Shown: positions 21,328 to 39,619 of the stretch, piece by piece | Numbering within the stretch: position 1 is the stretch's first letter | Layout: each line of letters begins with the position of its first letter | NCBI GenBank assembly: GCA_037146775.1 | Contig: JBAWWL010000001.1 | Location: forward strand, 325,464 to 389,463 | Length of the DNA stretch: 64,000 nucleotides | Direction: 5' to 3' | DNA from: Candidatus Omnitrophota bacterium | GTDB lineage: Bacteria > Omnitrophota > Gorgyraeia > Duberdicusellales > 4484-171 | Position numbers and translations under genes: made by a program | The notes under the pieces: model-generated | Databases searched by the model: none | The model's input: only the letters and a program-made list of their open reading frames with translations | Told to the model about the DNA's origin: nothing

Positions 21328-22638
21328 TTAGGGTGTTTGTGTGGCTTTTTGTTTTTGGTCTACAAGCGCCATCATTTCCAGCATCATTTGTTTTTTCATG
21401 GAAGCAAACTGGTCATTGAGGAATTGCACTTGTTGTTGCAGATGCTGAATCTCTACATCTTTTTGCTTAGCCTCCTCAACAATAACCTGCCTATCCAAAG
21501 GACGCTTACAGTTTTGGCAAACCGTTTCGTCAAAACCCGCTGCCGTATTACAAAAAGCACAAGTCCTAGTGCCTAAACCCTCTTGGCCTTTAGAATCACC
21601 AGCCAAAAGTCCTCGCCTTTGCAATTCCTTCTTAAAAGCCTCATCCTGACTTGAGAGGTCATAGGTTTTTAGCTGGCTTGTGCTCGTCCATCTTGCCGCG
21701 TGTTGGATTTCCATGTCGCTTTCGCCCCTAAGCCTCCTAATCGTAACACCATTACGTTTGAGGCTGTAGCACGTCACGGGCTTAATGATCCCCAGATTCT
21801 TACAAGCAGTCCGAATAAACTTGTTAACGTTATTTGGCTTGAGCTGCTTCAACGCGTTAGTCGTCCCAATATTTACGAAAAGAAACGACTGCTTGTTGGC
21901 CTTGTTTGGGTGAATGCTCAGCCACTTTGCAAGGTAAGGGAAGCTGTCAATACACTGAATAAGGCCAGTTCCTTCCTTGCCATGCTCGCTAATGTAAATC
22001 TTGGCATAATTATCAAACAACTTAACATCCTCAAGCTTCACATAAAGAAGTTCTTGCGGCCTTGCCAAACTCTCAAGCGACAAAGTGAGGAAGGCTTGAA
22101 TCCTTGGGTCTTTACCAAAATAGCCAACGAGGCTTTCAAACTCTTCATGGCTGAACTTGTCCTTTCGCATCTTCTGCCGGCTCTTATCAATCTTTGGTGA
22201 GATGTGGCGCACAGCGTAAGGCACAAGCGTTCCGTCCGGCCTGCCCTTTTCGTCTTTTTCCGGAAACAAAACTTTCCAAACAAGCTTAAGCTCCCTGATA
22301 AAAGTCTCTTTGCTCTGGGGAGTATTATAGACTTGGTGCATTGCCGCCATCAAAGCATCCATATCATCCCTGTCGCACTCCGCAAAATCTTTAACAAAAA
22401 AGTTGCCCGCAAACTTCACACACTGAATAATCCGAAGCCTCCTAATAAAAGACAAATCCCTAGCCCCAAAATGATTAAACAACTTCAAATAATATTCTAG
22501 GTTTGGCTTATGCTTGCAAACATACTTAGAACGCCCATCATTGCCAGCGCAAGCAATGATGTTTCTAAAATCTGCCACAAAATGTTCATACCTTTTTTTG
22601 TTCCCATAAATATCGTCCTCTGCCATCTTACACACCAT
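21328..22638 (-). CDS. tyrosine site-specific recombinase/integrase with a C-terminal zinc-ribbon and coiled-coil extension
   Basis: box I 'LESLARPQELLYVKLEDV', box II 'HAARWTSTSQLKTY' (HxxR...Y); 'CAFCNTAAGFDETVCQNCKRP' zinc ribbon. Confidence 0.8.
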   Translation of the reverse strand: MVCKMAEDDIYGNKKRYEHFVADFRNIIACAGNDGRSKYVCKHKPNLEYYLKLFNHFGARDLSFIRRLRIIQCVKFAGNFFVKDFAECDRDDMDALMAAMHQVYNTPQSKETFIRELKLVWKVLFPEKDEKGRPDGTLVPYAVRHISPKIDKSRQKMRKDKFSHEEFESLVGYFGKDPRIQAFLTLSLESLARPQELLYVKLEDVKLFDNYAKIYISEHGKEGTGLIQCIDSFPYLAKWLSIHPNKANKQSFLFVNIGTTNALKQLKPNNVNKFIRTACKNLGIIKPVTCYSLKRNGVTIRRLRGESDMEIQHAARWTSTSQLKTYDLSSQDEAFKKELQRRGLLAGDSKGQEGLGTRTCAFCNTAAGFDETVCQNCKRPLDRQVIVEEAKQKDVEIQHLQQQVQFLNDQFASMKKQMMLEMMALVDQKQKATQTP

Positions 22639-23350: not shown

Positions 23351-23383
23351 AAAAGAAAAAAACTAAAAAAACAAGAATAAAAA

Positions 23384-23404
23384 CTTTACACCCAAATAAC
23401 ACCC
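23384..23404 (-). promoter_or_regulatory. conserved motif copy (minus strand reads GGGTGTTATTTGGGTGTAAAG)
   Basis: lies 34 nt upstream of the minus-strand start at 23350. Confidence 0.45.
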
Positions 23405-23606
23405 TCACCTCGGGCACTGACTGAGTGTTTTCTGGTAGCTTATGCCATCGAGAGCGTCGCAATAATCCTCTCGGTAGTTTTCGTTGATTTGTGGCATAAA
23501 AAGCAGGAAGTCGCAATTGATAAGAATATTCTTGTTCAATAAAAGGATTTATATACAACTTCTTCCTTAAAGACTACAAATCATAAAGGAGTAAGAACGA
23601 ATAAAG

Positions 23607-25904
23607 ATGCGGCAAGCAAAGGTAACGGTTCAAGTCTTAATATTTCTGGTAATTGCTTCAGCAGCCCAGGCAACATCCGGAGCATTAAGTCCCCTATCTA
23701 ACCAAGAAGGGTTGTTCAGTCTTAGCAACGGTAATTCTTTCAATATCAAGGCAACAGGGCTGAACGGCGACACCTGTGTCTATGAAATAACCTACAGTGG
23801 ATATGTTAAAGAGACTGGTAATCTTGATGTTGGTTGCTCTTACATTTACAAGTATCCGGGAAGCAAGGCGATATTGACTCATAAAGGATTCAATTACCAA
23901 ACAAGCAAGTGCGAATTCACTCTTTTCGAATATACCGGAAGTGCATCACAATGGTCGACTGTATGCAATGAGGACTGTTCAAGCTGCTCAAGCACATGCC
24001 CCTGTACGGGCGGAGCAGTAGTGGACTGCAACGAATGCGAATACACAGGATATGACTGCACAGGAAACACTCTTTACTACTGTACAAGCCAGGGAAACTG
24101 CATTGTGAGGGAATTGGTTGATGTCTGCGGAGAAAACGAAGTCTGTGACCCCACAGATGGAATCTGTGAAGGAGTAGGAACACCCTGCCCTTATGAATGC
24201 TGCAAATACACAAACGCATATCTAGACAAGAACTGTCCCACTGGATACGCCTGCTCAAATTATCAATGCATACAACAGTGCACCAATAATGCTGAGCAGA
24301 AATGTTTTAACGGTAATGTCTATTGGTATGACAGCTGCGGCAACAAAGGAAACCTCTATGACACCTGCGGCTCAGAAGAAACTTGCAACAACGGATATTG
24401 CAGTTCTACCAGGACTACCTGTCCTTACGGATGCTGTGATAGTGACGATAGATATTTTGACAAAAGCTGCTCTTCAGGATATGAATGCAAATCTCAATCT
24501 TGCGAAAAGATATGTACCAGCAAGTACTCCACCAAATGCTACAACAACGATGTTTACTACTATGACAGCTGCGGAAGCAAAGAGACAATAAAGTACGATT
24601 GTAAGATCGATGAGAAATGCAACGGCAATTATTGTGTATCCACAAAATCTGCCTGTCCTCATGAATGCTGTATAGGCAATCAGAATTATTTTGATAAATC
24701 ATGTCCTGGCAAGGACAATTGCGAAAACAACAAGTGCATCGAACATAAAGGCGCTTGTCCTTACGGATGCTGTGACATATTTTCCGAATATGAAGAGAAG
24801 ACCTGTGAAGCGGGTTTTTCCTGCCTTGCAAATAAATGCGAGCAAATGAGTCCTGACAGTATTGAACTTCACAGCAAAATTAAACCTCACGATTCTTTGC
24901 TTTTGACCTTGTTAGACGGGCTTACTGGAAGGGACTATTCCGAACAAAAGTTCAACACTAACCTAAGAAAAGTGTATGAATACGTAAGCAGCATACCTTA
25001 CAGATACGATGACGAAAACAGCGCGGGCTGTATAAAGGGGAGCAAAGATTGCGGAGATGGAAGGCCTGGAATAGATTATTCTCAAGAACCCAAAGAGACT
25101 ATCTCAGAAAACATGGGAGACTGTGAAGACCACGCAATATTATTACAGAGCATGAACGAAGCATTATTCTACAAAACATATGGAACGATTCCTAAAGGCA
25201 GACTCTACCTAGTGTGTGGATGTATAGACTTCAATAATGACGGAGAAGAAGAAGGATGCCACTGCTGGAACATAATTCTGGATGATGACCCCTTATCAAG
25301 CTCAGGTAATACTAATAACCAAGCAATTACACGAGAAGTCCTGGTCGGCGACGTAGGCATCGGAGATATAAAATCAAATCCCCGTAAGATTACTGTGGAA
25401 ATCAAGCCTTATGTTAGCGGCGAGACGGATAAATCAATGACCAGGCAAGCTGTGTTATGGAATAACAAAAAATGGAATGAACTGGAATCAACATGGAAAA
25501 ACCCTTTTGATTTTTATGTTAACCTAAAATATCCCTTTAGCGAGGTATGGTACGTAGCGACAAGTGAAGAATTTTATTACGCACCAGATTTCACGAAAAT
25601 AGGCTGCGAATATGAACAAAGGTTACTATGGTACCTAGGATTAGACAACCTATGCCCTGCTGAAAAAAGCGCATCACCAGGCACAAAAGAAACAGCACCT
25701 CAACCAGAAACTAAAGCAATACAGCCAGAAACTACCAAAGTAACCTGGTGGAAAAAAGTATTAGAAGGCGACACAGAAAATAAAGACAATACCTCTGGGC
25801 AGCCAAAGCAAGAGCAGAAGGCAGATGGAACAAACGAAGCACCTCCACAACAAAAGCCATCCAAAGAAAAGACTTGGTGGAAACCCTGGACATGGCGCTG
25901 GTAA
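23607..25904 (+). CDS. secreted cysteine-rich repeat protein, 765 aa, with C-terminal transglutaminase-like cysteine-protease domain and Trp-rich tail
   Basis: signal peptide; at least four 'CPYGCC...D..C..GY.C....C' modules alternating with 'C...VY.YDSCG...' modules; 'GDCEDHAILL' and 'GCHCWNIILDDD' match the transglutaminase Cys and His-Asp motifs; C-terminal 'WWKPWTWRW'. Confidence 0.7.
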   Translation: MRQAKVTVQVLIFLVIASAAQATSGALSPLSNQEGLFSLSNGNSFNIKATGLNGDTCVYEITYSGYVKETGNLDVGCSYIYKYPGSKAILTHKGFNYQTSKCEFTLFEYTGSASQWSTVCNEDCSSCSSTCPCTGGAVVDCNECEYTGYDCTGNTLYYCTSQGNCIVRELVDVCGENEVCDPTDGICEGVGTPCPYECCKYTNAYLDKNCPTGYACSNYQCIQQCTNNAEQKCFNGNVYWYDSCGNKGNLYDTCGSEETCNNGYCSSTRTTCPYGCCDSDDRYFDKSCSSGYECKSQSCEKICTSKYSTKCYNNDVYYYDSCGSKETIKYDCKIDEKCNGNYCVSTKSACPHECCIGNQNYFDKSCPGKDNCENNKCIEHKGACPYGCCDIFSEYEEKTCEAGFSCLANKCEQMSPDSIELHSKIKPHDSLLLTLLDGLTGRDYSEQKFNTNLRKVYEYVSSIPYRYDDENSAGCIKGSKDCGDGRPGIDYSQEPKETISENMGDCEDHAILLQSMNEALFYKTYGTIPKGRLYLVCGCIDFNNDGEEEGCHCWNIILDDDPLSSSGNTNNQAITREVLVGDVGIGDIKSNPRKITVEIKPYVSGETDKSMTRQAVLWNNKKWNELESTWKNPFDFYVNLKYPFSEVWYVATSEEFYYAPDFTKIGCEYEQRLLWYLGLDNLCPAEKSASPGTKETAPQPETKAIQPETTKVTWWKKVLEGDTENKDNTSGQPKQEQKADGTNEAPPQQKPSKEKTWWKPWTWRW

Positions 25905-25954: not shown

Positions 25955-26812
25955 ATGGTAATAATAAACTATTGCACCAAATGTGGAAAGAAACTATCGA
26001 AAGAATATGATTTCTGTCCAGAATGCGGGAACCGTATTATTAACATAAAGAAAAAAGAAATATTAGTAACAACTCAGAAACAAACAGAATCATCTAATAA
26101 ATCTATTTGGTGGATAATTATCTTAATCGCAGTATTAATAATATTTGTGATTGTATCGATAGTATGCTTTTTAGTACCATTTAGTTATAGCTCAACAGAG
26201 GCATATTACGAAAAGGAACCATCTGCGTTACAAGAACAATATACTGAAAGTGTAATAAAATATCGACAAGTTCAGTCTGGTTATGATGAGAGTATCAGAC
26301 CTTTAGTAGACGAAGAGGGAAGTTATTATTCTCTCTTATCGCCAGGATTTAATGTGTGTACAGGTTGTTATGTCTCACTTACTATAGAAGCAAATTATCC
26401 TAAAGTTCCATTTAGATACATCATATCAGACCAATTTTTTGAGTGTAATAAAATATTCAGCGGAGAAGATGTTCCCAATGATGTCCAAAATATTGACCTC
26501 AGTCTTGGCACTCTTGATGTGGAGGATAGGGAAATTGGCCCAATCAATACAGATTCAACATTGTGTTTTGCAATTAGCGCAGTTGGTCCTCCAGGAAACA
26601 ACAACCAAAACATATACTCAAAGATTCAAATCAACCAAATAAGAAAGACTCCAATTATGATTTCTGAACCATATGAAACATCTGAGATTAGGAATAGGAC
26701 AGTAACCAACTATAAGGATGTAAAGAAAGAAAGGAATGTTACCAAATATGCTTCGATCTATAAGATTTGGACTAAACAGGTAGATTTCTATTATGTTCTA
26801 GGTCAAGAATGA
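25955..26812 (+). CDS. zinc-ribbon membrane protein, 285 aa
   Basis: N-terminal 'CTKCG...CPECG' zinc ribbon, one TM helix, then an extracytoplasmic domain. Confidence 0.5.
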   Translation: MVIINYCTKCGKKLSKEYDFCPECGNRIINIKKKEILVTTQKQTESSNKSIWWIIILIAVLIIFVIVSIVCFLVPFSYSSTEAYYEKEPSALQEQYTESVIKYRQVQSGYDESIRPLVDEEGSYYSLLSPGFNVCTGCYVSLTIEANYPKVPFRYIISDQFFECNKIFSGEDVPNDVQNIDLSLGTLDVEDREIGPINTDSTLCFAISAVGPPGNNNQNIYSKIQINQIRKTPIMISEPYETSEIRNRTVTNYKDVKKERNVTKYASIYKIWTKQVDFYYVLGQE

Positions 26813-26923
26813 GTAAAATAACTTGGATCATAATGGTTACTTTTTCAATTGTGCAAAAATGTAAGAAATAGTTTTTGCTTAGAAAGAAATCAAAAAAAAG
26901 AATCATATACCCATAAGCCGCCC

Positions 26924-27683: not shown

Positions 27684-27789
27684 AGCTAAACCTCCTTTCG
27701 TTAAAAAAAACCTATTCAGAAGTAGTAGCGAACAGAAATAAAAGGTTTACACCCCTTTTAATCCTAAGTGATGGGTGGTATTTGAGTGG

Positions 27790-29999: not shown

Positions 30000-30362
30000 T
30001 TAAAAGTGTTGTGGCTTCTTGAAGAATATCGTCGGACTGAGGTATTTTGTTCTTTGCTGGTTGTTCCTGTGGTTGTATTTTTCCTTCAGGAGGAGAATTA
30101 TTGGTGCGTGAGCTATTATTTGGGGTTTTCCGGCCTCGTCGTCCATTTCCGCTCTCATCGTTCCCCAGAGCCTTACTGCTGTGCTTGTCGTTGAGAGAGT
30201 GCTGTGCTTAATCTTTCTTGCGAGCTTGCTGATTGGCGTCCATTGCGGATAGTTGGGGAGTTCTTCCAGCATCTTGATTGCTCTCTTTTCTTCTGAAGCT
30301 TCAAGGTGCAGATAGCTGACCTCCTGATGGAAGCTGATTAGTCTTAGTTTTTCTCGTTCCAT
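30000..30362 (-). CDS. hypothetical protein, 120 aa
   Basis: 19-nt overlap with the upstream ATPase gene. Confidence 0.4.
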   Translation of the reverse strand: MEREKLRLISFHQEVSYLHLEASEEKRAIKMLEELPNYPQWTPISKLARKIKHSTLSTTSTAVRLWGTMRAEMDDEAGKPQIIAHAPIILLLKEKYNHRNNQQRTKYLSPTIFFKKPQHF

Positions 30363-31753
30363 TTTTTTACCAGTTCTTTTAGTTCTTCGTCTGTTAGTTT
30401 CCTCGTTGGTAGTGGTGGGGGTGTTTTTATGAGGCAGTTTTTGGCTCTGCCTTTGACTTTGGCGAAGGCTTGGCCTAGCCAGATGTAATCAATGTATCTT
30501 GTCTCGTGCTGTTTGAGGAAGAGGCCGTTTGATACTGTTGACACGTCTTTGAATGTGTTTGCGGCAAAGTGTATTTGGGTTTTGCATTGGAAGGCGTAGT
30601 TTTTGAGTTCGCTGCATTCCTGAGCAAGCGTGACTACTCCCAGTCCTAGTTTTCTTCCTTCTCGATAAATGTTTTGTAGCGTGCCGTCGCCAAACATTCG
30701 TTCTTCTGTTGAAGAGGTCATCATGTTTTGGCTTTCTTCCATTATGAGAAGCATCCTTAGTTTTTCTGTTTCTCCGATGCTGAGGAAGTACAGCATGATG
30801 TAAAGCAACAAGGTTTCTTGGAATAGTATCCTTAGGCTGTTTGGGAGTTCTATGTCCATCTCAAGAATTGTAATTCCGGGTCTCTCAAGCATTTTGGATA
30901 TGTCCATTGGGTTTCTTGAGCCGAACAACTCTTTTGTGTTCGGCCTAAGCATTGAAGACAAAACCCTCATTGCACTGTCTTTCCAAAGTGAAGCCCTGCC
31001 GCGCAGGAATTGGTTATCTACCCTTTTTTTGATGTCTTCAATGTTTGGAAGCAGATGAAGTTTTCCCTGCTGATAGCCTTCCAGCAAATTTTCTGCCTCG
31101 TTCAGTATCAAGCTTCCTGATCCCTGCCCTGAGAGCAAAGATTTCGAGAGAGGCTTTTCAGAAATTATGCCTATCCAACTCAGTGGCGAAACGCCCGGAG
31201 GGGGTGAGAAGAAGAGGTTGTATCTGAACGGCGAAGTTTCCCTCCCTATGGTGTAAACCCGAATGTCTTTTACGAAAGGATAACTTTCTTTGGGCAGTTT
31301 ACACAGACTTGACCATGTCCTGTTCCAATCCACAATCCAAATAGGAACATTCTTCTCTGCCAACTGCACAGCGATATTGTAAGCAAGAGTAGTCTTTCCC
31401 GTTCCAGTAAGGCCAGTACAAAGAATATGATGCCTCAAATCATTCATGGACAGTTTCAGGGGATAAAGCTCCCTATCAGTCCCGTCACCGTTCCTTCCGT
31501 AGCATACCTGTCCGAGCGTTATTTCTCCCAATCCGCACTCTTCTTTGGTTGATGGCGGCAACATCGGCTGGTCTGGCAAAAGACTGTCATTTAAGAGCTT
31601 GTTTGCTGAGAGCTTCAATATTTTTGACAGTCGATCTTTTCGTTCCTCATCACCAATAGCATGAATCAGCTTGAGCTTTTCCGCTTTTTCCCGCCCCCAC
31701 GCAGGTTCGAGACGAAGGATAAGCTCGTCCGTCTGCTCATCAATCTGTATCAC
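30344..31753 (-). CDS. HerA/FtsK-superfamily (DUF87/AAA_10-like) P-loop ATPase, 469 aa
   Basis: 'RHHILCTGLTGTGKTTLAY' Walker A with a preceding conserved His; Walker B-like 'LLIMEESQNM'. Confidence 0.6.
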   Translation of the reverse strand: MIQIDEQTDELILRLEPAWGREKAEKLKLIHAIGDEERKDRLSKILKLSANKLLNDSLLPDQPMLPPSTKEECGLGEITLGQVCYGRNGDGTDRELYPLKLSMNDLRHHILCTGLTGTGKTTLAYNIAVQLAEKNVPIWIVDWNRTWSSLCKLPKESYPFVKDIRVYTIGRETSPFRYNLFFSPPPGVSPLSWIGIISEKPLSKSLLSGQGSGSLILNEAENLLEGYQQGKLHLLPNIEDIKKRVDNQFLRGRASLWKDSAMRVLSSMLRPNTKELFGSRNPMDISKMLERPGITILEMDIELPNSLRILFQETLLLYIMLYFLSIGETEKLRMLLIMEESQNMMTSSTEERMFGDGTLQNIYREGRKLGLGVVTLAQECSELKNYAFQCKTQIHFAANTFKDVSTVSNGLFLKQHETRYIDYIWLGQAFAKVKGRAKNCLIKTPPPLPTRKLTDEELKELVKKWNEKN

Positions 31754-32232
31754 TTCTGCTCACCCAGAATCTTCTTGTCTTGCTGCCCTTCAAGGCGCTT
31801 ATGCCACAGGTCTACAAACATCGAGGTTGGTTCTGACAGGTCTTCCCAAGCCTTAATTTTTTGTTCAAGAAGCAGGTTCTCTGTGCCTTTTTTTTCCTTT
31901 TCCAAAGCCATCCTTCGCCTCTCAATATTCATGTTATAACCAAGCTTAAACGAATAAAGCTGTCCGATCTCTTTAGAAAGCTCGTTCCACTGGTTTTCCA
32001 AAACTGAGACCGTGTTATTGTAAATCTTAAGCCTGTACGTAATACAGAAGGCAGTATTAACGACCTTATCCAAAAGCTTAGCCTCATCCATACCAAGAAT
32101 TGCTTCCAAAGAAAAGCCGCCATCCTGCGATTGAACAGCCTTTTGCGGAGTTGGCTGGTAGCGGGAGGAGTAGAGGTATCTCTCAAACACAGGCGTTCCG
32201 TACAGTGCTGGCTTGTAATTATTGAAGTCCAT
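31750..32232 (-). CDS. hypothetical protein, 160 aa, coupled to the HerA-like ATPase
   Basis: 4-nt overlap with the downstream ATPase; motif copy located upstream. Confidence 0.4.
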   Translation of the reverse strand: MDFNNYKPALYGTPVFERYLYSSRYQPTPQKAVQSQDGGFSLEAILGMDEAKLLDKVVNTAFCITYRLKIYNNTVSVLENQWNELSKEIGQLYSFKLGYNMNIERRRMALEKEKKGTENLLLEQKIKAWEDLSEPTSMFVDLWHKRLEGQQDKKILGEQK

Positions 32233-32267
32233 CTTAACTACACAGTAAAAACAAACCCATTAAAAAA

Positions 32268-32290
32268 GATTACACCCAAATAGCACCCGC
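32268..32290 (-). promoter_or_regulatory. conserved motif copy (minus strand reads GCGGGTGCTATTTGGGTGTAATC)
   Basis: lies 36 nt upstream of the start at 32232. Confidence 0.45.
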
Positions 32291-32639
32291 GTTTTAGGTG
32301 ATGATTGGCTGATAGATAGCTTCAATCCTAAATATGCTTTTCCTATCAAAGAAGGTATACCCATCGTTCTGTATAAGGTGGCCAATGTGGATGCCTCAAG
32401 TGTTTGGAATAGATTTTGTAACGTGCCCTAATGGGTCTTTCCTAAGCCCTTGATTCTTATGATGGTTATGGGTTTTGTGACTTAACCAAGCCCCCTATTC
32501 CTCCCTGATTTTTCCAGTTTTCCTTTATTAGCAGTTATGACGTTTCTCTTATATATGTGTAAAATTTATGCCTTAGCAACACAAGGCGACCCAAAATTTT
32601 TGAGAGCGGTCTGTCTTGACCAGAAAGGAGGTGAATTCT

Positions 32640-32771
32640 ATGGGATGTTTAGGGAAATGCGGCGAGTGTTTGAGGTTGAAGTGTGGGGGCGGCTGGGTTA
32701 CTGACGGGAAAAGGTATTACTGGCTGCCAAAACAAGAGAAACAGAAAATAAAAATGGGAGGTGCAAAATGA
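32640..32771 (+). CDS. Cys-rich micro-protein, 43 aa
   Basis: GGAGGTG RBS 7 nt upstream; 'MGCLGKCGECLRLKCGGGW'. Confidence 0.35.
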   Translation: MGCLGKCGECLRLKCGGGWVTDGKRYYWLPKQEKQKIKMGGAK

Positions 32772-32947
32772 GCGAGAGAATGCCTTGCAGTCATTGTGGA
32801 AAAAGCGGAACTACGCAGTATTCGTGTTGTTTCTACAAATTTTATGGCAGAAAACCTGGGTTTTTTGAGTCCATGGATTACGTGCAGTGTTGTGCTTGTA
32901 AAGGCACAGGCTATGAGCCGAAGGCTGCGCCCCTTTACAACATGTAA
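32768..32947 (+). CDS. Cys-rich zinc-finger-like micro-protein, 59 aa
   Basis: ATGA overlap with the previous ORF; GGAGGTG RBS; 'CSHCGKSG...CCACKGTG' (CxxCxGxG-like). Confidence 0.4.
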   Translation: MSERMPCSHCGKSGTTQYSCCFYKFYGRKPGFFESMDYVQCCACKGTGYEPKAAPLYNM

Positions 32948-33017
32948 AGGGTGGGAAAGTGAGGGGCGGCTAAAGTGTTTTTGGCCGCCTCTCCACTCAC
33001 AAAAAAAGGAATATGCT

Positions 33018-33761
33018 ATGAAAAGAATTAGGCTGTGGAAAAGAGACTACGACATCATCGAAAACTTAAAGAATGGTTTGTTTACAACCGGCCAGCTTGC
33101 CAAACTCTTTTTTAGTTCGCAAAAGAAAGCTGCTGAACGCCTCATATTATTATTCAAAGCCGGACTTGCCGATAGATTTCAGGCACCACTTGATGAGGCA
33201 AAGGGAAAGCCAGAATACGTCTACTGCAAAAAAAACGGGAAAATCCCCAAGAATTACAGCCATATCAAGCACAGCCTTGCAATAACTGATTTTTATGTAT
33301 GGCTCATCGAAAAGACAAAACAAGTTCAAGACATGGTTGCCAAATTTTATTATGGAACAACCCTCGAAGATAAGGGATTGCATGGCGGACTTTTGCTTCC
33401 TGACGCTTTTTTCGTTCTTGAGAAGGCAGACAAAAAGCTCCTGTATTTTGTCGAAATAGATTTGGGAACAGAAACCCTAAGGTCAGGATCAAACTACTCA
33501 TTTGAAGGAAAACTCGATTTATACGCCGACATTTTTGACAGCGAAGAATACAACAAATTCCTCAACCACAAATTCGTAGGCTTCAGACTGCTCTGTGTTT
33601 TTACATCACAAAAAAGGATGCAAAATTTTCTGGGAATCGCAAAAGAAAAGAACTCCGACTTTGTCTTGTGCTCAACATTTGATTCGCTCAAAAATTCTGA
33701 TTTTATCGAAAAAACATGGGCTGACATTTCAGGGAAGAAAGTTGGTTTGTCAGGAAAATAA
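33018..33761 (+). CDS. replication-relaxation-family protein (plasmid/ICE-associated), 247 aa from Met 33018
   Basis: 'FTTGQLAKLFF...AAERLILLFKAGLADR', 'HSLAITDFYVWL', 'GGLLLPDAFFVL', 'YFVEIDLGTE' match the family pattern; the ORF-track start at 32796 was rejected. Confidence 0.55.
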   Translation: MKRIRLWKRDYDIIENLKNGLFTTGQLAKLFFSSQKKAAERLILLFKAGLADRFQAPLDEAKGKPEYVYCKKNGKIPKNYSHIKHSLAITDFYVWLIEKTKQVQDMVAKFYYGTTLEDKGLHGGLLLPDAFFVLEKADKKLLYFVEIDLGTETLRSGSNYSFEGKLDLYADIFDSEEYNKFLNHKFVGFRLLCVFTSQKRMQNFLGIAKEKNSDFVLCSTFDSLKNSDFIEKTWADISGKKVGLSGK

Positions 33762-33779
33762 ATTTTAGAGGATAGGGTA

Positions 33780-34337
33780 GTGAAAATTCTTCCAACCCAA
33801 AAAGGATACAACATAGTTTACGCAGACCCGCCTTGGCGTTACGGCGCTCAGGGTAGCTCTTCTTGGATGGGGCGAGGAGCGAAAAAGCACTATCCGACTA
33901 TGAATTTGGAAGACATAAAGAACCTGAAAATTCCGTGCGGCAAAGATTGCGTACTTTTCTTATGGGTAGTTTTTCCACTACTAAAAGAAGGATTACAAGT
34001 AATGGACGCATGGGGCTTCAAATACAAAACCGTAGCCTTCGTCTGGATTAAGCTAAACAAGAAAAACAAAGAACCATTCTGCGGCATGGGCTCATGGACA
34101 AGGTCAAACGCAGAAATTTGCCTGCTTGGAACAAGAGGAAAAAACAAGCGAACGAGTGCCAAAGTAAGACAAGTAATCATTTCGGAAAGAAGGGAACACT
34201 CACGAAAGCCCGACGAAGTACGAGACAGAATAATTCAACTCATGGGAGATAATCCAAGAATAGAACTCTTTGCTAGACAGAAAAATGAAGGTTGGGATGT
34301 TTGGGGAAACGAAGTAGACAAATTCGGGACGAATTAA
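33780..34337 (+). CDS. MT-A70-family N6-adenine DNA methyltransferase (orphan)
   Basis: 'YADPPWRY' DPPW motif; 'HSRKPDE...ELFARQKNEGWDVWGNE'. Confidence 0.8.
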   Translation: MKILPTQKGYNIVYADPPWRYGAQGSSSWMGRGAKKHYPTMNLEDIKNLKIPCGKDCVLFLWVVFPLLKEGLQVMDAWGFKYKTVAFVWIKLNKKNKEPFCGMGSWTRSNAEICLLGTRGKNKRTSAKVRQVIISERREHSRKPDEVRDRIIQLMGDNPRIELFARQKNEGWDVWGNEVDKFGTN

Positions 34338-34340
34338 GCA

Positions 34341-34371
34341 GGGGATTAGGTTGGGGATTTGGTCGGGGATT
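34341..34371. repeat. three direct GGGGATT repeats spaced 12 bp apart (iteron or operator-like)
   Basis: 'GGGGATTaggttGGGGATTtggtcGGGGATT'. Confidence 0.5.
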
Positions 34372-34494
34372 AAGCCCCTGTATAGGAATGGCGTAACTGG
34401 CAGAAAACAAGCGGGAAGCAACAAATTGGCAGAAGCCAATACCCCTTGAAACAGTGACAGGGGATACATAACTCAAAATACAAAGGAGTACCTA

Positions 34495-36828
34495 ATGAAA
34501 AACCAACAAAGAATACAAGACTTCATGACAGAAATGTTCCTAGGTAATGCAAGAAATAATTACCAATACGAATGTGGCCGTTGGAGCCTTCCTGCCGTTT
34601 ACCCTTACCAGATTTGCGCCGAACCCATTTTTGAACTTTTTGACCCAATGCAGACTTACTCACTATCCACCAATACCGCCAGATTGGTCAGAAGGGTTAG
34701 TAGTAGCAGTAGTAGTAGTCGGGTAGTAAGGGAAGTAAAGCTAAATTATTTTGAAAAAGTTGAGTGGCTAAAGTTTGAGAGCTTGCTTAATTGTTTTTCC
34801 GCCTTTGAGAAATCGGTAAGCTTCGAAATTTTCTGCCTAAATGGTTCTGTAACTTTCTTTATCGGCAGTGCTTCTTTGGATCAGCTAAATATTGTCTGCA
34901 ATGTTTTCCAGAGCTACTTTCCCGGCACTGTTTTTAGGGAAGTTCCTGATCCTTTGCTGACCTTAAATGATTGCGGAGAGGGATTTTTTGTTTGCGATTT
35001 TTACTGCTCTGCTCCTTATCACAAAAAGGTATCTTCTGACAGGACGGTTGGTTGCCTTAATTCTGTTTTCAAAACATTCTCTGGCCTGAAGAGCGGGGAG
35101 TGCGGTTTTTATCAGGTCATCTTTGAGCCTGCAAAGGATGAATGGGGCAAAAACGTCAAGGCTCTTAGTGCCGCAGAAAAGCTTGCAAGCAACACCTATC
35201 CTTCCGGCGCAAGCCCCTCTGATGGCTTCAAAGACGCGGCTTTGCCTTTGTATGCCTGCCGGGTACGCTTGGGCTGTGTTGTTGGGAAGGATAGCGGTGT
35301 TGTTGACGCTATTAAGCAGTTTGGCAGTTGTTTTGTTCATGGCGGAAAAGCCTTGAGTTTTCGGACTGAAAAGGACTTTCTTGACGTTGTAAAAAAACGG
35401 GATGTGGCCGAAATGGTTGGCGGCAGATTCGGGTTTTGTTCCGGCCTTTTGCTTGACACCAAGGAGCTTGCTTCTTTTGTTTACTTTCCTGACCGAAGCA
35501 TTACCAGTTTTGGGCTAAAGATTAACTTCACAAGAGGATTTATGGTGAGCAAAGCTTTGCTATCAGGCCGCCCAATAGGATTTAGCTGCTCAAGCGGCAG
35601 CGATGACGTCATCTGCCTGCCAACAAACATTCAGAACAAGTGCATGTGGATTCTTGGCACTGCAAGGAAAGGCAAAAGTGTTTCGATGGCTAATCAGTTC
35701 CTTTGGCTTGCAGACAACGGCGACGGAGCGGATTTTATTGATCCTCACCGCACAACAGTATTTGAACTCCTCGGTCTCTTGCCCGATGAAGTCTTAGATA
35801 GGGTTATTTATTTGGATTATGACGATGACGATTATGTTGTGGACTTCAATCCTTTTGATGAAGCTGATGAAGAGTCTTTTGGCAGGCTGACTATCGAGTT
35901 TGTGAACAGCTTCAAGAACCTGTTTGAGGCGGCAAGTTTCCACCGCATGAGCCATTTGCTTAGGATGGCGGTTTATGCCCTCTTTGTACTGAAAAAAAAT
36001 ATCAGCAGTATTCCTGCTCTTTTTTCCCGGACAGATGAGGGAGATGCTTTAAGGAAGGCTGTTGTTGATAAGTGCAAAAATGAAGAGGTGACGCGGTTTT
36101 GGAAAAGCGAGTTTTATGGTTATCGTAAAGATGCTTTTAGCCCAATCCTTAACAGGTTTTCCGCACTTCTTATGGACGCTAAGGCTTCGCGTATTTTCTC
36201 AAGAGAAAAAAACAAGGTTGATTTGGCAGACGCTATGGATTCCGGCAAGTTATTGCTTGAGGCGTTGCCTAACAGCATTGATGTTTCCGGGATTATCGGT
36301 GGAATGAGGATTGGGCAGACTCAGAAATGCGCTTTTGCCCGGACAGCAAAAAGGGATAGTTGCCGCAGAGAGTTTCATTTGTTGGTCGATGAGTTTCACC
36401 GTTTTTCTACAGGCAAAACGCTTGAGAGCATCATTAACGAAACTGTAAAGGCTGGACTTCATTTGTGCGCGGCTAATCAGGAGACTGCGCAACTTAGTGA
36501 TGAGTTGTTGAGGGCTGTTTTGAGCATGCCGAACATCATGTTGTTCAATGTCAATTTCTTGGATGCAAAGAAGCTGTTGCCTGTTTTCAATAATCGTATA
36601 GGTGTTGAAGACATTACAGGGCTTGGTGTGGGGGAGTGTTTTGTTAAGTTTGGTGATGAGATTGTGGACGTTAAATGTTTTGCGCCTAGAAAGGATTATT
36701 CAGAAGAAAAGGCCAAAAGAATCATTGAGGAGAGCAGAAAAAAATATTACACACCAGTCTCTATGCTCCAAAAAGAAAAACCAGAAGCAAGAGGCGAGAA
36801 GCGCGCAAGAATTATTGACTCATTCTAA
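34495..36828 (+). CDS. large P-loop NTPase of the VirB4/HerA/T4CP class, 777 aa (possible DNA-transfer ATPase)
   Basis: Walker A 'GTARKGKS', Walker B 'HLLVDEFHRF', downstream 'CAANQETAQL'; Ser-run encoded by an AGT repeat near the N-terminus. Confidence 0.5.
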   Translation: MKNQQRIQDFMTEMFLGNARNNYQYECGRWSLPAVYPYQICAEPIFELFDPMQTYSLSTNTARLVRRVSSSSSSSRVVREVKLNYFEKVEWLKFESLLNCFSAFEKSVSFEIFCLNGSVTFFIGSASLDQLNIVCNVFQSYFPGTVFREVPDPLLTLNDCGEGFFVCDFYCSAPYHKKVSSDRTVGCLNSVFKTFSGLKSGECGFYQVIFEPAKDEWGKNVKALSAAEKLASNTYPSGASPSDGFKDAALPLYACRVRLGCVVGKDSGVVDAIKQFGSCFVHGGKALSFRTEKDFLDVVKKRDVAEMVGGRFGFCSGLLLDTKELASFVYFPDRSITSFGLKINFTRGFMVSKALLSGRPIGFSCSSGSDDVICLPTNIQNKCMWILGTARKGKSVSMANQFLWLADNGDGADFIDPHRTTVFELLGLLPDEVLDRVIYLDYDDDDYVVDFNPFDEADEESFGRLTIEFVNSFKNLFEAASFHRMSHLLRMAVYALFVLKKNISSIPALFSRTDEGDALRKAVVDKCKNEEVTRFWKSEFYGYRKDAFSPILNRFSALLMDAKASRIFSREKNKVDLADAMDSGKLLLEALPNSIDVSGIIGGMRIGQTQKCAFARTAKRDSCRREFHLLVDEFHRFSTGKTLESIINETVKAGLHLCAANQETAQLSDELLRAVLSMPNIMLFNVNFLDAKKLLPVFNNRIGVEDITGLGVGECFVKFGDEIVDVKCFAPRKDYSEEKAKRIIEESRKKYYTPVSMLQKEKPEARGEKRARIIDSF

Positions 36829-36859
36829 AAACACAAAACCAAAAAGGGAGGTGTTTACC

Positions 36860-37480
36860 ATGTTTGCTGCAAAAAGCGTAAAAGAAGTAATTGCATTACT
36901 GCACGTAGACGTCATCGCGGAACAAATCGAAAGCGTACACAAAATCATTCGGGAAAGCTACAAAGTCAAAAAATACGTTGTGGAGGACTATGAGGAATTC
37001 AAAAATGAGATTTCGAGGTATTACCAGTATCACTTCAGCATGTGGATAGATGCAGACTCAATAATGCCTCCTGATCTTGCACACACAAGAGCGCGCAACA
37101 TACTAAAGAATCAGCCAAACACAAATCTGCCAGAGATTCGAGACGTCTTGGGCAGCTCTGGCGAAAACGGCTACACAATATCTTACAAAAACGCAAAAAC
37201 AGGCCGCTACGGAGGACTAATAGGCGTTATCGACGCCCTTGCGGAAGGGATTAAAAATGACGCCATATCCAAATACGTCTCAGCAGTCTTCCTCGACTGC
37301 GTTAACCCAATGGACTTCGACAAAAAAATATATTTCATCCAAGAATACCTAAAAACGTACGGACAGATATTGCTTCCGGGGGAAGAATTCCTAAGCATAT
37401 ACGAACTAGCAAACGACCTAGAAGCAATAATACAAAACCACGTAAAAATAATAAACGAATTCAGAAAAAAATTGCAATAA
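36860..37480 (+). CDS. hypothetical protein, 206 aa
   Basis: ATG with AAGGGAGGTG RBS; the 5' extension in the ORF track overlaps the ATPase gene and was rejected. Confidence 0.45.
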   Translation: MFAAKSVKEVIALLHVDVIAEQIESVHKIIRESYKVKKYVVEDYEEFKNEISRYYQYHFSMWIDADSIMPPDLAHTRARNILKNQPNTNLPEIRDVLGSSGENGYTISYKNAKTGRYGGLIGVIDALAEGIKNDAISKYVSAVFLDCVNPMDFDKKIYFIQEYLKTYGQILLPGEEFLSIYELANDLEAIIQNHVKIINEFRKKLQ

Positions 37481-37787
37481 ATTGTGTTTTAAGCGCGGAG
37501 GTTTCTTGATGAGTCTGCTTCCAAGTAAGGCTATTAGTTATGCAGTGATTGTTTTTTTGTGCGCAGTGTTTTTTGGTTTAGTAATAAAATTTTGGTAAGG
37601 ACTTGGAGGTGTGTTGATTGATGAACAACAAGGCGCAGAGAAGTTTGGATGGTTTTGATGAAAAGAAGAGGTTGCAGCGTTTTTATGCGATTCTTCTTGA
37701 TGCAGACCTTGCATGCTTTTCTGACCTTATCGAGAAACGCAGGAGGTACAAGAAATAGTTCTTTACAAAACCCTACAAATACCTATA

Positions 37788-37988
37788 ATGTTTGCTATGG
37801 ACAAGAAGAGCAAGACTTACAACATTCCAAAGACGGCAGAGTTTCTTGGTGTGCATGAGATGACGATTCGGTATTGGATTCGCAAAAAATGGGTGACGCC
37901 TCAGCGCGATTACAGAAACTATCCTGTATTTACGGACGAGGACATAAAGAAGATTGAGCTGTGGCGTAACACTTTGAGGAAGCCATGA
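37788..37988 (+). CDS. excisionase-like HTH protein (candidate recombination directionality factor)
   Basis: 'IPKTAEFLGVHEMTIRYWIRKKWV' MerR/Xis-type HTH; 4-nt overlap with the recombinase start. Confidence 0.6.
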   Translation: MFAMDKKSKTYNIPKTAEFLGVHEMTIRYWIRKKWVTPQRDYRNYPVFTDEDIKKIELWRNTLRKP

Positions 37989-39619
37989 AAGTAGCGATAT
38001 ACACGAGAGTTTCTACTGAAGACCAAGTGCGTGAGGGGACTTCTCTTGAGGTTCAGAGGGAGTATCTTGAGGCTTTTGCCAAAAGAGAAGGATGGACAAT
38101 TTATTATCCTGAACGCGGAAAAATTTATATGGACGATGGTTACAGCGGGAACTTGCGGGATAGGCCAGCACTGAACCGGCTACTTTTTGATGCTAGGGCA
38201 AAAAAGTTTGACATTGTTCTGGTCTACAAGATAGATCGCTTTGCTAGAAATAATCGCATGCTCCTGAATCTTGTTGAAGAACTCAGCGAGCTAGAAATTG
38301 GTTTTAAAAGTGCAACAGAATCTTTTGATACAGTGAGTGCTGCTGGAAAAATGGCACTGAGCATGCTTGGAACAGTAGCACAGTTTGAGAGGGACAGAAT
38401 CATTGAGCGCGTATTTCCCGGAATGGTCAAAGGAGTCCAGCGCGGCAATTGGCAGGGCGCAAGATACTCGCCATACGGCTACAGCTACAACAAAGAAAAA
38501 AAAGTCCTCGAAGTAGTAAAAGAGGAAACGGAAATAGTCAAACTTATTTATACGATGTATCTTGCAAACCAAAGCACACCACAAATCGCGGGCTACCTAT
38601 ACAAGAAAGCATACAAGACCAGAAGCGGCGGAAAATTCCACACAAAACTCATAGGCGATATTTTGAAAAATCAGGTTTACTTGGGAAAGCTTGTGTGGAA
38701 CCGACACCACTATGACCAGAAGCAAAAGACAAGAAGGGGATACAAGTATGTAAAGAATGAAGCTTCGAAAATAATTGTTGCTGATGGAAGACACCAACCA
38801 ATAATAAATCCAGAAGATTTTTTGCTAGTACAAGACAAGCTAAAAGGCAACAGGCGAGGAGTCATGCATCGGGCAGGAGTAAAAGAATACCCCCTCTCAG
38901 GAATCTTGTTCTGCGCTAAGTGCGGCCACAAATATTTGGGAGCAGCAAACATATCTAATCATCGCGAAAAAATAAAGAAGAGATGGTACAGGTGCAACGC
39001 CCGCCAAGTACACTTCATCAAGTGCCCGAACAACTCTATTCGCGCAGAAATCTTAGAGCCACAAATTTATGGCATCATCGAAACCATCCTTCAACACCCA
39101 GAAACGACCTCTACGCGCATGCAAAACATAGTAAAGACGAGAATGGAGATAGGCGACACTGATCTCAAGGCAGAGAAAGAAGACTTGAAGGATGCTCTAC
39201 GAAAGAACCTTGAGAAGCAGCACAAGCTGAACGATACCTACTTAGCAGACCTCTTAGCAATAGAAGTATACAAAGACCAATCAATCCTTCTGCGCGAAGA
39301 AGAGAAGGAGCTAAAGAAGGCCATAGCCAAAGCAGACATGAAACTTGTCGAAAAAGAACGCTCACAAGAATACGAACGACTCCTGCGAAGAATTACAGAA
39401 AATTTTGAAGACACAAAGAAAAAAATAGATATAGTAACCAAAAAAGAGCTGCTTCAACTCGTATTCAAAAGAATAGTGGTAAATGACGGCAAAATAGAGG
39501 ACTTTGAACTATACAAGCCCTTCAAAAGGCTTTATGAGGAGCAAAAATGCAAGACAAAACCAATAGCGACAGCCACAAAGGACGACTCGTATATATTGCA
39601 ACCTACGGCTGTCAGATGA
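37985..39619 (+). CDS. large serine recombinase (integrase), 544 aa
   Basis: resolvase N-domain 'VAIYTRVSTEDQ...YMDDGYSGNLRDRPALNRLL...VLVYKIDRFARN'; recombinase domain; Zn-ribbon 'CAKCGHK...RCNARQVHFIKCP'; coiled coil. Confidence 0.9.
   Translation: MKVAIYTRVSTEDQVREGTSLEVQREYLEAFAKREGWTIYYPERGKIYMDDGYSGNLRDRPALNRLLFDARAKKFDIVLVYKIDRFARNNRMLLNLVEELSELEIGFKSATESFDTVSAAGKMALSMLGTVAQFERDRIIERVFPGMVKGVQRGNWQGARYSPYGYSYNKEKKVLEVVKEETEIVKLIYTMYLANQSTPQIAGYLYKKAYKTRSGGKFHTKLIGDILKNQVYLGKLVWNRHHYDQKQKTRRGYKYVKNEASKIIVADGRHQPIINPEDFLLVQDKLKGNRRGVMHRAGVKEYPLSGILFCAKCGHKYLGAANISNHREKIKKRWYRCNARQVHFIKCPNNSIRAEILEPQIYGIIETILQHPETTSTRMQNIVKTRMEIGDTDLKAEKEDLKDALRKNLEKQHKLNDTYLADLLAIEVYKDQSILLREEEKELKKAIAKADMKLVEKERSQEYERLLRRITENFEDTKKKIDIVTKKELLQLVFKRIVVNDGKIEDFELYKPFKRLYEEQKCKTKPIATATKDDSYILQPTAVR

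Follow-up and report, generated by a model that had tools for sequence, protein, structure and literature searches.

What does a mobile island in a bacterial genome gain by carrying a gene for a protein with 61 cysteines, and is that protein an enzyme? The gene lies in a 64,000-nt stretch of the Candidatus Omnitrophota assembly GCA_037146775.1, hereafter the window. The original prediction had read it as a secreted Cys-rich modular protein with a transglutaminase-like protease domain. Our analysis points to a Sec-exported, disulfide-stabilised modular enzyme, in which a stalk of Cys modules carries a C-terminal peptidase, and we regard this explanation as a whole, its proposed origin included, as reasonably likely. 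The protein is divided as follows:

23607..25904, + strand: whole open reading frame, 765 aa plus stop, ATG start and TAA stop
23607..23672, + strand: Sec-type signal peptide, aa 1-22, read from the sequence, with predicted cleavage between AQA and TS and without a lipobox Cys
23676..23966, + strand: N-terminal region, aa 24-120, with four Cys and without a family match
23967..24179, + strand: irregular Cys-rich region, aa 121-191, with 12 Cys
24864..25622, + strand: transglutaminase-like cysteine-peptidase domain, aa 420-672, from profiles and an AF2 model (pLDDT 84, pTM 0.88)
25656..25871, + strand: low-complexity linker rich in P, E, T, K and Q, aa 684-755
25872..25901, + strand: Trp-rich basic C-terminus, TWWKPWTWRW, aa 756-765

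A ribosome-binding site (AAGGAG, 23586-23591) is located 15 nt 5' of the reading frame. The predicted signal peptide (MRQAKVTVQVLIFLVIASAAQA, followed by TS) has a basic n-region and an AxA site and is the sole hydrophobic segment of the protein, in agreement with the signal peptide originally claimed. The motifs quoted in the original prediction were likewise all found: GDCEDHAILL (504-513), GCHCWNIIL (550-558), DDD (559-561) and WWKPWTWRW (757-765). A Sec signal in a diderm is evidence for export only as far as the periplasm. Trp occurs 15 times in the protein, and by count the 61 Cys comprise 60 pairable residues plus the predicted catalytic C506. The linker holds a 21-nt tandem repeat (25694-25734) and the first TWWKK motif (25743-25757), and TWWKPWTWRW occurs once only in the window. 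A relative, P0002, has a non-Cys-rich N-terminal region at the equivalent place, with no detectable similarity to aa 24-120.

A profile was run exhaustively against 1.84 billion protein representatives and returned 115 matches to the domain, about 25 of them over its whole length; conservation counts given below refer to 24 family members. Scanned alone, the protein scored 17.3 bits against the Pfam family DUF553 (profile positions 19-72 of 140), below the cut-off of 20.5, and gave no NCBIfam, PHROG or PADLOC match. Because the query alone fails the curated Pfam cut-off, whereas the family profiles are significant, the superfamily assignment rests on these profiles and on structure. Alignment of the family with 30 DUF553/Transglut_core proteins by hhalign gave 99.7% (E 1.8e-25) and paired Cys with Cys and His with His. 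Members matched CEPT76_peptidase (17/24), Transglut_core (6/24) and DUF553 (6/24, at E<=0.01). P0006 exceeds the cut-offs of Transglut_core (25.7 vs 23) and CEPT76_peptidase (28.1 vs 27.8), and P0013 just exceeds that of DUF553 (20.8 vs 20.5). Peptidase_C93 (PF06035) was matched by three of the 24, all below the cut-off (best 21.3 vs 27 bits), and not by the query.

The best match in a profile search of the PDB was LapG (4fgo, E 1.1e-6; also 4u65), and LapG was also first in a Foldseek search with the AF2 domain model (prob 1.0), followed by NAT, PeiP/PeiW, Rad4 and PNGase; the top matches were all transglutaminase-fold proteins. The scores against LapG were modest (TM 0.38-0.55, E about 1e-3) because of insertions. 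Taken together, these results support membership of the domain in the transglutaminase-like cysteine-peptidase superfamily (Pfam clan Peptidase_CA, transglutaminase branch), as first proposed, and it belongs there to the DUF553/BTLCP (LapG-like) branch. The domain carries a family-specific insertion of ~65 aa (about aa 559-620) after the His strand and a C-terminal extension with Y-P...F-N-S-Q. Its motifs and candidate active-site residues are:

24999..25070, + strand: YRYDDEN...GDGRPG motif, aa 465-488, with the C475/C482 pair, common to archaeal DUF553 proteins
25116..25130, + strand: G-D-C-E-D, aa 504-508, with C506 at 25122-25124
25260..25262, + strand: H552, predicted catalytic His on a beta-strand
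25281..25289, + strand: DDD, aa 559-561, the Asp of the original prediction
25350..25352, + strand: D582, the other candidate third residue of the triad, where the strand that follows the His strand ends
25473..25496, + strand: WNELESTW, aa 623-630, with E627 at 25485-25487

C506 is the predicted nucleophile. It is invariant in 24/24 members, is the first residue of AF2 helix 506-525 and pairs in profile alignments with the Cys of the DUF553 proteins and of LapG. H552 is also invariant (24/24), lies on strand 550-558 and pairs with the His of the DUF553 proteins. C551 and C553 flank it, while C537 and C539 are on the preceding strand; within the family C537 covaries with C553, and C539 with C551, likely reflecting two disulfides. 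The other invariant residues are N452, G504, D505, E518, L520, P529, G538, W554, E625 and L626. Around the nucleophile, D505 is kept in 24/24, E507 in 20/24 and D508 in 21/24 members, and these three correspond to the Ca-binding residues of LapG/DvhG. The D-C-E around the nucleophile of DvhG is a Ca site verified by mutation (PMC13090378), and D139 of LapG binds Ca (PMC4866520).

The Cys and His of the Cys-His-Asp triad first put forward thus align with catalytic residues, but its acid does not hold. DDD 559-561 was rejected: column 559 is N in 16/24 members, 560 and 561 are variable, the closest homologue reads NIN, and all three residues are at the end of H552's own beta-strand. The third residue is most likely E627, with D582 (D15/G7/P1/A1 in the family) as the alternative. 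E627 is Glu in 22 members and Asp in 2, and WNELESTW fits the canonical acid-strand motif W..l[DE]pT, which the compact relatives L038 and L020 also show. This motif match is short and statistically weak, with hhalign against L038 (both full length and as a fragment) and shuffled pairwise alignments truncated or not significant. The profile alignments end just past the His, so E627 and D582 are both no more than candidates.

Between the irregular region and the catalytic domain, we found six Cys modules of two types:

24186..24269, + strand: module A1, aa 194-221, CPYECC...C
24279..24401, + strand: module B1, aa 225-265, C..C.NGNVYWYDSCG..C..C..C
24420..24503, + strand: module A2, aa 272-299
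24513..24635, + strand: module B2, aa 303-343
24654..24737, + strand: module A3, aa 350-377
24756..24839, + strand: module A4, aa 384-411

Module A follows the pattern C-x3-CC-x10-C-x5-C-x4-C (starts at aa 194, 272, 350 and 384) and module B the pattern C-x7-C-x10-C-x9-C-x5-C-x4-C (starts at aa 225 and 303). The two Cys-rich types described earlier are therefore real, but they do not strictly alternate: the order is ABABAA, with only two AB units, and the A copies start at 24186, 24420, 24654 and 24756, spaced by 234, 234 and 102 nt. Aligned without gaps over 77 aa, the two AB units share 45% aa identity (E 2e-22), which places the repeat far beyond chance; Tandem Repeats Finder reported no array in the A/B region, as the copies have diverged too much. 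A degenerate B-like module (aa 141-187) within the irregular region aligns with P0002. In the AF2 model, module B1 forms three beta-hairpins with a pLDDT of 92-96, and the modules are predicted to be stacks of beta-hairpins.

No Pfam family matched the modules. With an A+B module model, Foldseek found no significant solved fold (best the CD40 CRD, E 1.4); the Cys-rich region alone (aa 187-414) retrieved no homologue, only 10 candidates having words in common with it; and phmmer of the whole protein against the PDB gave only chance LDL-receptor-A matches on the Cys region. Among the relatives, module B was found only in P0002, P0003 (Woesearchaeota) and P0020. Homology between modules A and B is only a suggestion, since MAFFT could not align the A-only modules consistently with the A+B units. 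Like the CRDs of TNF receptors, EGF-like domains and the Dumpy DPY module, A and B are small six-Cys modules in tandem and would form disulfide-stapled beta-hairpins, and short homologues of the protein weakly match Dumpy_DPY. Unlike in those families, however, the Cys spacings of A and B are distinct, and no significant sequence or fold match to them was detected.

All relatives on placeable contigs are archaeal. The contigs of P0002 and P0005 are identified as archaeal by S8e, L21e, Rpb4 and Rpr2, with Kae1 above its cut-off; P0003 is named Woesearchaeota; and the GTDB species representatives yielded a single full-length match, a Bathyarchaeia MAG. The domain partners in homologues are lipase (fused to the domain in P0002), CARDB, PKD, dockerin and beta-helix, a setting that fits an active enzyme. 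A tblastn search against phages and a scan of IMG/VR revealed no viral relatives, the viral matches in a BFVD fold search were marginal, and neither a substrate nor a partner gene nor a gene neighbourhood shared across the family loci was found. The present gene, in contrast to these archaeal relatives, is within a bacterial island:

21328..22638, - strand: tyrosine integrase (Phage_integrase 38.9 bits; phrog_1)
25955..26812, + strand: zinc-ribbon protein with one transmembrane segment, the downstream gene
30344..39619: the other mobility genes, namely
30344-31753, - strand: HerA/FtsK-like ATPase
32796-33761, + strand: Replic_Relax
33780-34337, + strand: MT-A70
34495-36828, + strand: 777-aa phrog_5156 protein
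37985-39619, + strand: large serine recombinase

The gene's neighbours are the integrase, a small ORF and the zinc-ribbon membrane protein, whose homologues were not found beside family members elsewhere. This setting agrees with the mobile-element cargo originally proposed. The flanks are bacterial (HrcA-GrpE-DnaK-DnaJ, MiaA, HflX, ClpB and SPOR), and neither a tRNA nor a convincing att-like flanking repeat was found at the island ends. The candidate stretch lies between an HNH gene (about 19.5 kb) and a MiaB-like gene (about 39.6 kb). Inter-domain transfer of the gene is probable because the other family members that can be placed are all archaeal and this one lies in an Omnitrophota island. 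The GC content of the gene equals that of the host, and therefore either the transfer was not recent or its direction is uncertain.

In the mechanism that we propose, removal of the signal peptide would leave a stalk of ~290 residues, built of six-Cys beta-hairpin modules (four A, two B and degenerate ones), that carries the catalytic domain at its C-terminal side. C506, at the N-terminus of its helix, would attack the substrate, with H552 on the adjacent sheet as general base and, as the probable acid partner, E627 in W-x-E-L-E-x-T past the insertion. D505, E507 and D508 would form a LapG-type Ca2+ site around the nucleophile, and activity would then be confined to compartments outside the cytoplasm. 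It most likely cleaves, and less likely cross-links, surface or envelope proteins, although a peptidase, a transglutaminase, an isopeptidase and an amidase would look alike in sequence. Tethering of the enzyme to a membrane interface or envelope is the probable role of the PETK-rich linker together with the Trp-rich basic tail.

LapG and DvhG (BTLCP, Pfam Peptidase_C93, MEROPS C93) are Ca-dependent periplasmic cysteine proteases that free adhesins. The present protein has in common with them the motif ...DYWqt..ET...G-GDCED-AI, a nucleophile at a helix N-terminus with D-C-E Ca residues around it and the His on the adjacent strand, a signal peptide and, presumably, activity outside the cytoplasm. 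In contrast to LapG, to which it is only 14-16% identical in structural alignment, the domain has the long insertion after the His strand, an extra C-terminal sub-domain and probably a Glu instead of an Asp as acid, and it is fused to a long Cys-rich stalk. The island contains neither a LapD-type/c-di-GMP receptor nor a LapA-type T1SS adhesin with a TAAG site. DUF553 (PF04473) and Transglut_core (PF01841) are the transglutaminase-like proteins from archaea and bacteria that Makarova, Aravind and Koonin described in 1999 (family 3; see PMC10318531). The DUF553 proteins, which are predominantly archaeal and extracellular, have the YRYDDEN...GDGRPG.DY.Q.P.ET..G.GDCED block and the His in common with the present domain. 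However, these relatives have an EF-hand ahead of the domain and a short C-terminal half with V-D-N-A-Y-S, whereas the present family has no EF-hand loop and instead carries the insertion and the ELE.TW and FNSQ motifs. PeiW and PeiP are pseudomurein endoisopeptidases (MEROPS C71) of methanogen proviruses; they too are mobile-element-encoded, have a transglutaminase-like Cys-His-Asp fold and act on archaeal envelopes, but no sequence similarity to them was detected and they carry pseudomurein-binding repeats in place of Cys-rich hairpin modules.

It is conceivable, though unlikely, that the domain is a true transglutaminase that stitches surface proteins or the Cys-rich stalk itself into an envelope layer. 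Enzymes that cross-link and enzymes that hydrolyse have one fold and one Cys-His-acid chemistry in common, Transglut_core or DUF553 fits the domain as well as Peptidase_C93 does, and DUF553 proteins have been described as catalysing transamidation in a classification paper (PMC10318531). However, the best solved relatives by both sequence and fold are the proteases LapG and DvhG with the same D-C-E Ca site, and no candidate substrate with Gln/Lys-rich repeats is encoded nearby. Most tested prokaryotic members of the superfamily are hydrolases, which we also count against cross-linking. Hydrolysis of another kind, by a PeiW/PeiP-like endoisopeptidase or S-layer protease that breaches the envelope of a recipient or prey, possibly archaeal, on behalf of the mobile element or of an epibiotic or predatory Omnitrophota cell, seems quite unlikely to us. 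PeiP and PeiW are indeed among the fold matches, the gene is within an island of transfer genes, the family is otherwise archaeal, P0002 joins the domain to a lipase, and Omnitrophota include epibiotic predators of archaea (PMC10066038; PMC13153191). Nevertheless, the PeiP and PeiW matches are weak (prob 0.57 and 0.13), sequence searches gave no viral relatives and the viral fold matches are marginal, nothing marks the source MAG as a predator, and the archaeal members are encoded by archaea themselves. A bolder version, to which we give little credence, is that an Omnitrophota bacterium captured, on an integrative element, an archaeal-type peptidase of surface proteins with a hitherto undescribed disulfide hairpin stalk and a membrane-seeking Trp-rich tail, and uses it to attach to or cut the proteinaceous envelopes of archaeal hosts, as an inter-domain 'stolen key' virulence factor.

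The protein might instead be mainly an adhesin or structural surface protein, with Cys modules that bind and a transglutaminase-like domain that is a non-catalytic binding module. About 290 residues of repeated disulfide modules do look like an adhesin stalk, and inactive transglutaminase-like domains are known in Rad4/XPC and EPB42 (PMC10318531), but the Cys, the His and the D-C-E are invariant or nearly so in the 24 members, divergent as these are and some of them lacking Cys modules. This is the pattern expected of an active enzyme, and we consider the adhesin explanation improbable. Most improbable of all is an assembly or binning artefact, whether repeats that collapsed or a bacterial contig chimerically fused to archaeal DNA, even though the source is a MAG and the nearest relatives are archaeal. 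The gene lies well inside the window, 23 kb from one end and 38 kb from the other, on a contig reported as 398 kb and with bacterial genes downstream, and neither GC content nor skew shows a break across the region. The repeats, at 45% protein identity, are too diverged to have collapsed, and in a second public assembly, GCA_964613555.1, a stretch of 22,298 nt that includes the gene is 100% identical; misassembly of the repeats, which the original prediction had allowed for, is therefore rejected.

If the proposal of an exported stalk-borne peptidase is true, the gene belongs to a sub-family of extracellular transglutaminase-like cysteine peptidases that is small, mostly archaeal and without a Pfam model of its own, and whose marks are a distinctive insertion, a Ca site of the LapG type and probably a triad of Cys, His and Glu; it also brings two related six-Cys hairpin modules without a known fold match. 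The bacterial copy on a mobile island would then be a concrete candidate for a surface-acting enzyme passed from archaea to bacteria, and would offer a testable handle on the interaction with host envelopes in a phylum suspected of parasitism or predation on microbes. Were only the conservative part to hold, it would be another predicted secreted protease of a well-known superfamily. Overall, the gene is an unusual variant, probably imported across domains, rather than a new kind of system. One further feature lies at the junction of domain and linker:

25605..25655, + strand: C667-EYEQRLLWYLGLDNL-C683, an aromatic amphipathic segment between two Cys

In the short homologues, a C-terminal amphipathic helix is the counterpart of this segment.

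The gene under study lies on an island bearing an integrase upstream and a serine recombinase downstream:

21328-22638, minus strand, tyrosine integrase; the order here is small ORFs, integrase, a 142-aa ORF, then the gene
23607..25904, plus strand, the gene under study; ATG start, 765 codons, TAA stop
37985-39619, plus strand, large serine recombinase, the last of the listed island genes downstream

The open reading frame was found as originally predicted from the sequence, with every quoted motif in its place, and AAGGAG occurs 15 nt upstream of it. The N-terminus, MRQAKVTVQVLIFLVIASAAQA followed by TS, combines a basic n-region with an AxA cleavage motif and is the sole hydrophobic segment of the 765-aa protein, which contains 61 Cys and 15 Trp. 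The identical protein is encoded in another public assembly, GCA_964613555.1, which shows 100% identity over 22,298 nt; since the repeat copies have, in addition, diverged from one another, their misassembly, a possibility raised with the original prediction, is very unlikely. No further copies of the Cys modules and the Trp-rich terminus were detected in the window.

The C-terminal domain (aa 420-672) is a transglutaminase-like cysteine-peptidase domain, because its Cys and His are aligned in a profile search. Scans of the protein against NCBIfam, PHROGs and PADLOC gave no match. Pfam queried with the protein alone gave only DUF553 ('transglutaminase-like domain') at aa 453-514, with 17.3 bits against a cut-off of 20.5, so that the Pfam search proposed as a check fell short with the single query and it was the family profiles and the structure model that supported the superfamily. 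Only three proteins emerged when 5.8 billion were searched through a word index: the window protein (deposited at NCBI from a 'Candidatus Omnitrophota bacterium' MAG, 398-kb contig); P0002, a 985-aa homologue with the same Cys modules, the C-terminal domain at 44% identity and a C-terminal lipase; and P0003 from a Woesearchaeota archaeon, in which a CAP domain precedes five or six B modules. A family profile was seeded from the C-terminal domains of the window protein and P0002. The indexed search with the two-domain profile yielded thirteen proteins, and an exhaustive profile search of 1.84 billion cluster representatives yielded 115 matches, 30 of them below 1e-10 and about 25 spanning the whole domain. 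Invariant in 24 full-length members are N452, G504, D505, C506, E518, L520, P529, G538, H552, W554, E625 and L626. Members match CEPT76_peptidase (17/24), Transglut_core (6/24), DUF553 (6/24) and Peptidase_C93/BTLCP (3/24) in Pfam, and the homologue P0006 exceeds the curated cut-offs of both Transglut_core and CEPT76_peptidase. Compared profile to profile with 30 more distant proteins, 28 of which match DUF553 and 26 Transglut_core, the family aligned at 99.7% probability (E 1.8e-25), with C506 on their Cys and H552 on their His, which bears out the transglutaminase-like domain of the original prediction. A PDB search with the family profile retrieved LapG (4fgo, E 1.1e-6; 4u65), aligned along ...DYWqt..ET...G.GDCEDhAI. 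In the AF2 model of aa 420-672, built with the family alignment as input (pLDDT 84, pTM 0.88), helix 506-525 opens with C506 and H552 lies within strand 550-558. Foldseek likewise ranked LapG at the top (probability 1.0, TM 0.52-0.55 on LapG length), followed by transglutaminase-fold proteins only: arylamine N-acetyltransferases, PeiP/PeiW, Rad4/XPC, PNGase and axonemal CEP76-like proteins. It is very probable that the domain has the transglutaminase fold and is, as predicted, an active Cys/His enzyme.

The acid of the triad had been placed in the DDD at aa 559-561, which is ruled out by its poor conservation and its location on the H552 strand. Column 559 is occupied by N in 16 of the 24 members, by D in 6 and by E in 2, conservation is lacking at columns 560 and 561, the closest homologue reads NIN, and the motif stands at the end of the H552-bearing strand, at least 7 residues downstream of H552. 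D582, which ends the next strand (VLVGD), is a second candidate acid residue beside E627; D occurs there in only 15/24, the others having G, P or A. E627 lies within W-x-E-L-[E/D]-x-T-W, which we take to resemble the canonical W..lDpT acid strand of Transglut_core; E625 is present in 24/24, and position 627 is E in 22 and D in 2. In compact relatives from genomes, an E627-type motif stands at the usual 15-20 residues after the His, as in those from Thermotogota (...GHAWVVFKVLDVFGYEVWRYLEPT...) and Sulfurimonadaceae (...GHAWVVLFANGKEYILEAT...), the latter having a Pfam Transglut_core match that extends to profile position 103 of 108, within the motif region. We therefore prefer a putative Cys506-His552-Glu627 triad, in which aa 559-620 would form a family-specific insertion; because the family profile alignments end just past the His, and fragment and shuffle alignment tests of the E627 motif gave no significance, this preference comes from motif matching alone. 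Around the nucleophile, D505 (24/24), E507 (20/24) and D508 (21/24) correspond to the Ca-binding residues of BTLCP proteases, a putative Ca site. In DvhG, the D316A/E318A double mutant, altered at both residues flanking C317, is inactive (PMC13090378); in LapG, Ca is bound by D139 (PMC4866520) and Ca ions adjoin the triad (PMC4359373).

The domain shares a superfamily with LapG/DvhG and would work similarly. It fails the tests for the BTLCP family, lacking both a match to that Pfam model and any partner of the LapD or adhesin type, and the window protein also scores under the DUF553 threshold. An insertion and a C-terminal sub-domain are particular to it, and its acid is probably Glu. The DUF553-type relatives (P0014-P0016 and A5, an alignment of distant ones) carry an EF-hand Ca-binding loop, FDxNxDGxLxxxEA, right before the YRYDDEN...GDCED block, whereas the window protein has kept the surrounding helices but lost the loop. 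Since the BTLCP and DUF553 family tests failed and the insertion and sub-domain are its own, the domain is a distinct variant within a known superfamily; what is new is this variant joined to undescribed Cys modules. Predictions of secreted transglutaminase-like proteases in archaea and bacteria go back to 1999 (family list, PMC10318531), and the finding would surprise a specialist only mildly; some interest is added by the new modules and by the cross-domain setting on a mobile island.

Taken as a whole, the protein is probably best explained as a Ca-dependent cysteine peptidase that is exported, sits on a disulfide-rich stalk and would act on surface or envelope proteins. The transglutaminase fold might belong instead to a cross-linking transglutaminase, which we regard as unlikely, and the island setting to an envelope-lytic isopeptidase or S-layer protease for element transfer or predation, which seems somewhat less likely again. 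The Cys-rich region might be that of a non-catalytic adhesin, but this is improbable given that the catalytic residues are invariant, and an artefact is hardly credible.

Ahead of the peptidase domain, module A (C-x3-CC-x10-C-x5-C-x4-C) occurs at aa 194, 272, 350 and 384 and module B (C-x7-C-x10-C-x9-C-x5-C-x4-C) at aa 225 and 303; an irregular stretch with 12 Cys, part of which is a degenerate B-like module, comes before the whole series. There are indeed two module types, but they do not alternate throughout, the order being ABABAA; likewise, the expected ~230-bp DNA periodicity holds for two spacings between module A copies (starts 24186, 24420, 24654 and 24756; spacings 234, 234 and 102 nt) but not for the third. 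Tandem Repeats Finder reported no array across the A/B region, which reflects the age and divergence of the copies; the two A+B units (77 aa each) align without gaps at 45% identity (E 2e-22). The modules belong to no described family; no Pfam family matched, a sequence search of the PDB gave chance matches only, and Foldseek with the A+B model found nothing significant, the top being the CD40 TNFR cysteine-rich domain at E 1.4. In that AF2 model (mean pLDDT 81), the B part forms three consecutive beta-hairpins (pLDDT 92-96); for the A part, with just two sequences behind it, the prediction is less secure. Besides the window protein, B modules were seen only in P0002, P0003 and the homologue P0020, and short family members have simpler C-x5-C-x5-C-x4-C repeats at the equivalent position. 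Since MAFFT tends to place the core of A (CC-x10-C) opposite that of B (C-x10-C), the two may be variants of one module. We infer that the region serves as a rigid stalk or a binding region. Each region holds an even number of Cys apart from the catalytic domain, in which C506 is left over; the count is consistent with a protein that is extracellular and oxidised. Cys stands at both 537 and 553 in six family members, with one further member having just one, and at both 539 and 551 in four and never singly; this covariation suggests two cross-strand disulfides bracketing H552 (C-G-C ... C-H-C).

Directly after the domain comes C667-EYEQRLLWYLGLDNL-C683, which positionally matches the aromatic amphipathic C-terminal helix of short homologues (e.g. 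IFEDMYAYLTGWLKGLLSILTE), and then a linker of 72 residues in which P, E, T, K and Q abound and TWWKK occurs. The Trp-rich tail was confirmed at the C-terminus as TWWKPWTWRW and is absent from all homologues. In composition the tail resembles those peptides rich in Trp, Pro and Arg which bind to membrane interfaces; by this analogy we only hypothesize that it might anchor the protein.

The family is archaeal wherever the host is readable. P0002 adjoins genes for the ribosomal proteins S8e and L21e, Rpb4 and Rpr2, the contig of the homologue P0005 carries archaeal Kae1 above its cut-off, and among 185,579 species-representative genomes the single full-length match is a Bathyarchaeia MAG. Other members join the domain to CARDB, PKD, dockerin, beta-helix or S/T-rich linkers, as is typical of surface proteins in archaea. 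The simplest reading is that the gene entered the Omnitrophota lineage by inter-domain transfer, a direction taken from the distribution and not from a tree. No viral relatives of the family were found, and no neighbour gene is conserved across the family loci, including the P0005 locus compared with the window. Around P0005 (contig L048, 4363-8687, archaeal) lie numerous small ORFs without annotation, together with a resolvase and CopG/MazE-like antitoxins. Mobile elements may often carry members of the family. Some Omnitrophota are epibiotic predators of archaea (PMC10066038; PMC13153191), and a link between such predation and the archaeal affinity of the family is speculative.

Downstream of the gene lie a Zn-ribbon membrane protein, small ORFs, a HerA/FtsK-like ATPase, Replic_Relax, an MT-A70 methylase, a 777-aa phrog_5156 protein and the large serine recombinase. 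With the integrase and these transfer and recombinase genes around it, the gene is reasonably read as cargo of an integrative element. That part of the original prediction is favoured by the recombinases, ATPase and Replic_Relax nearby, but neither tRNA nor att repeats were found at the island ends, and GC content is uniform across the region. From about 39.6 kb onward the gene content is clearly that of a bacterium (MiaB-like, TPR/SPOR, MiaA, HflX, ClpB, HrcA-GrpE-DnaK-DnaJ, AccD).

The tyrosine integrase has a C-terminal zinc-ribbon-like CxxC...CxxC segment, and two elements, nested or side by side, may explain the presence of both recombinases. The serine recombinase ORF runs at its 3' end about 70 nt past the MiaB-like start as called mechanically (39547). 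An imperfect 34-nt direct repeat (ACTCAATACTCA...ACTAAA; 39786-39819 and 40290-40323, 504 nt apart, 85% identity) within the MiaB-like radical-SAM ORF is probably a low-complexity chance similarity. A ~37-nt intergenic motif ending in TTTACACCCAAAWAACACCC occurs in five copies (23368-23404, 26887-26923, 27729-27765, 29136-29172 and 32252-32288) that are 65-76% identical to the reference copy. Two or more of them stand directly upstream, in the minus-strand sense, of leftward island ORFs (22922-23350 and 31750-32232, both minus strand), and the motif has the look of a common promoter or operator within the element.
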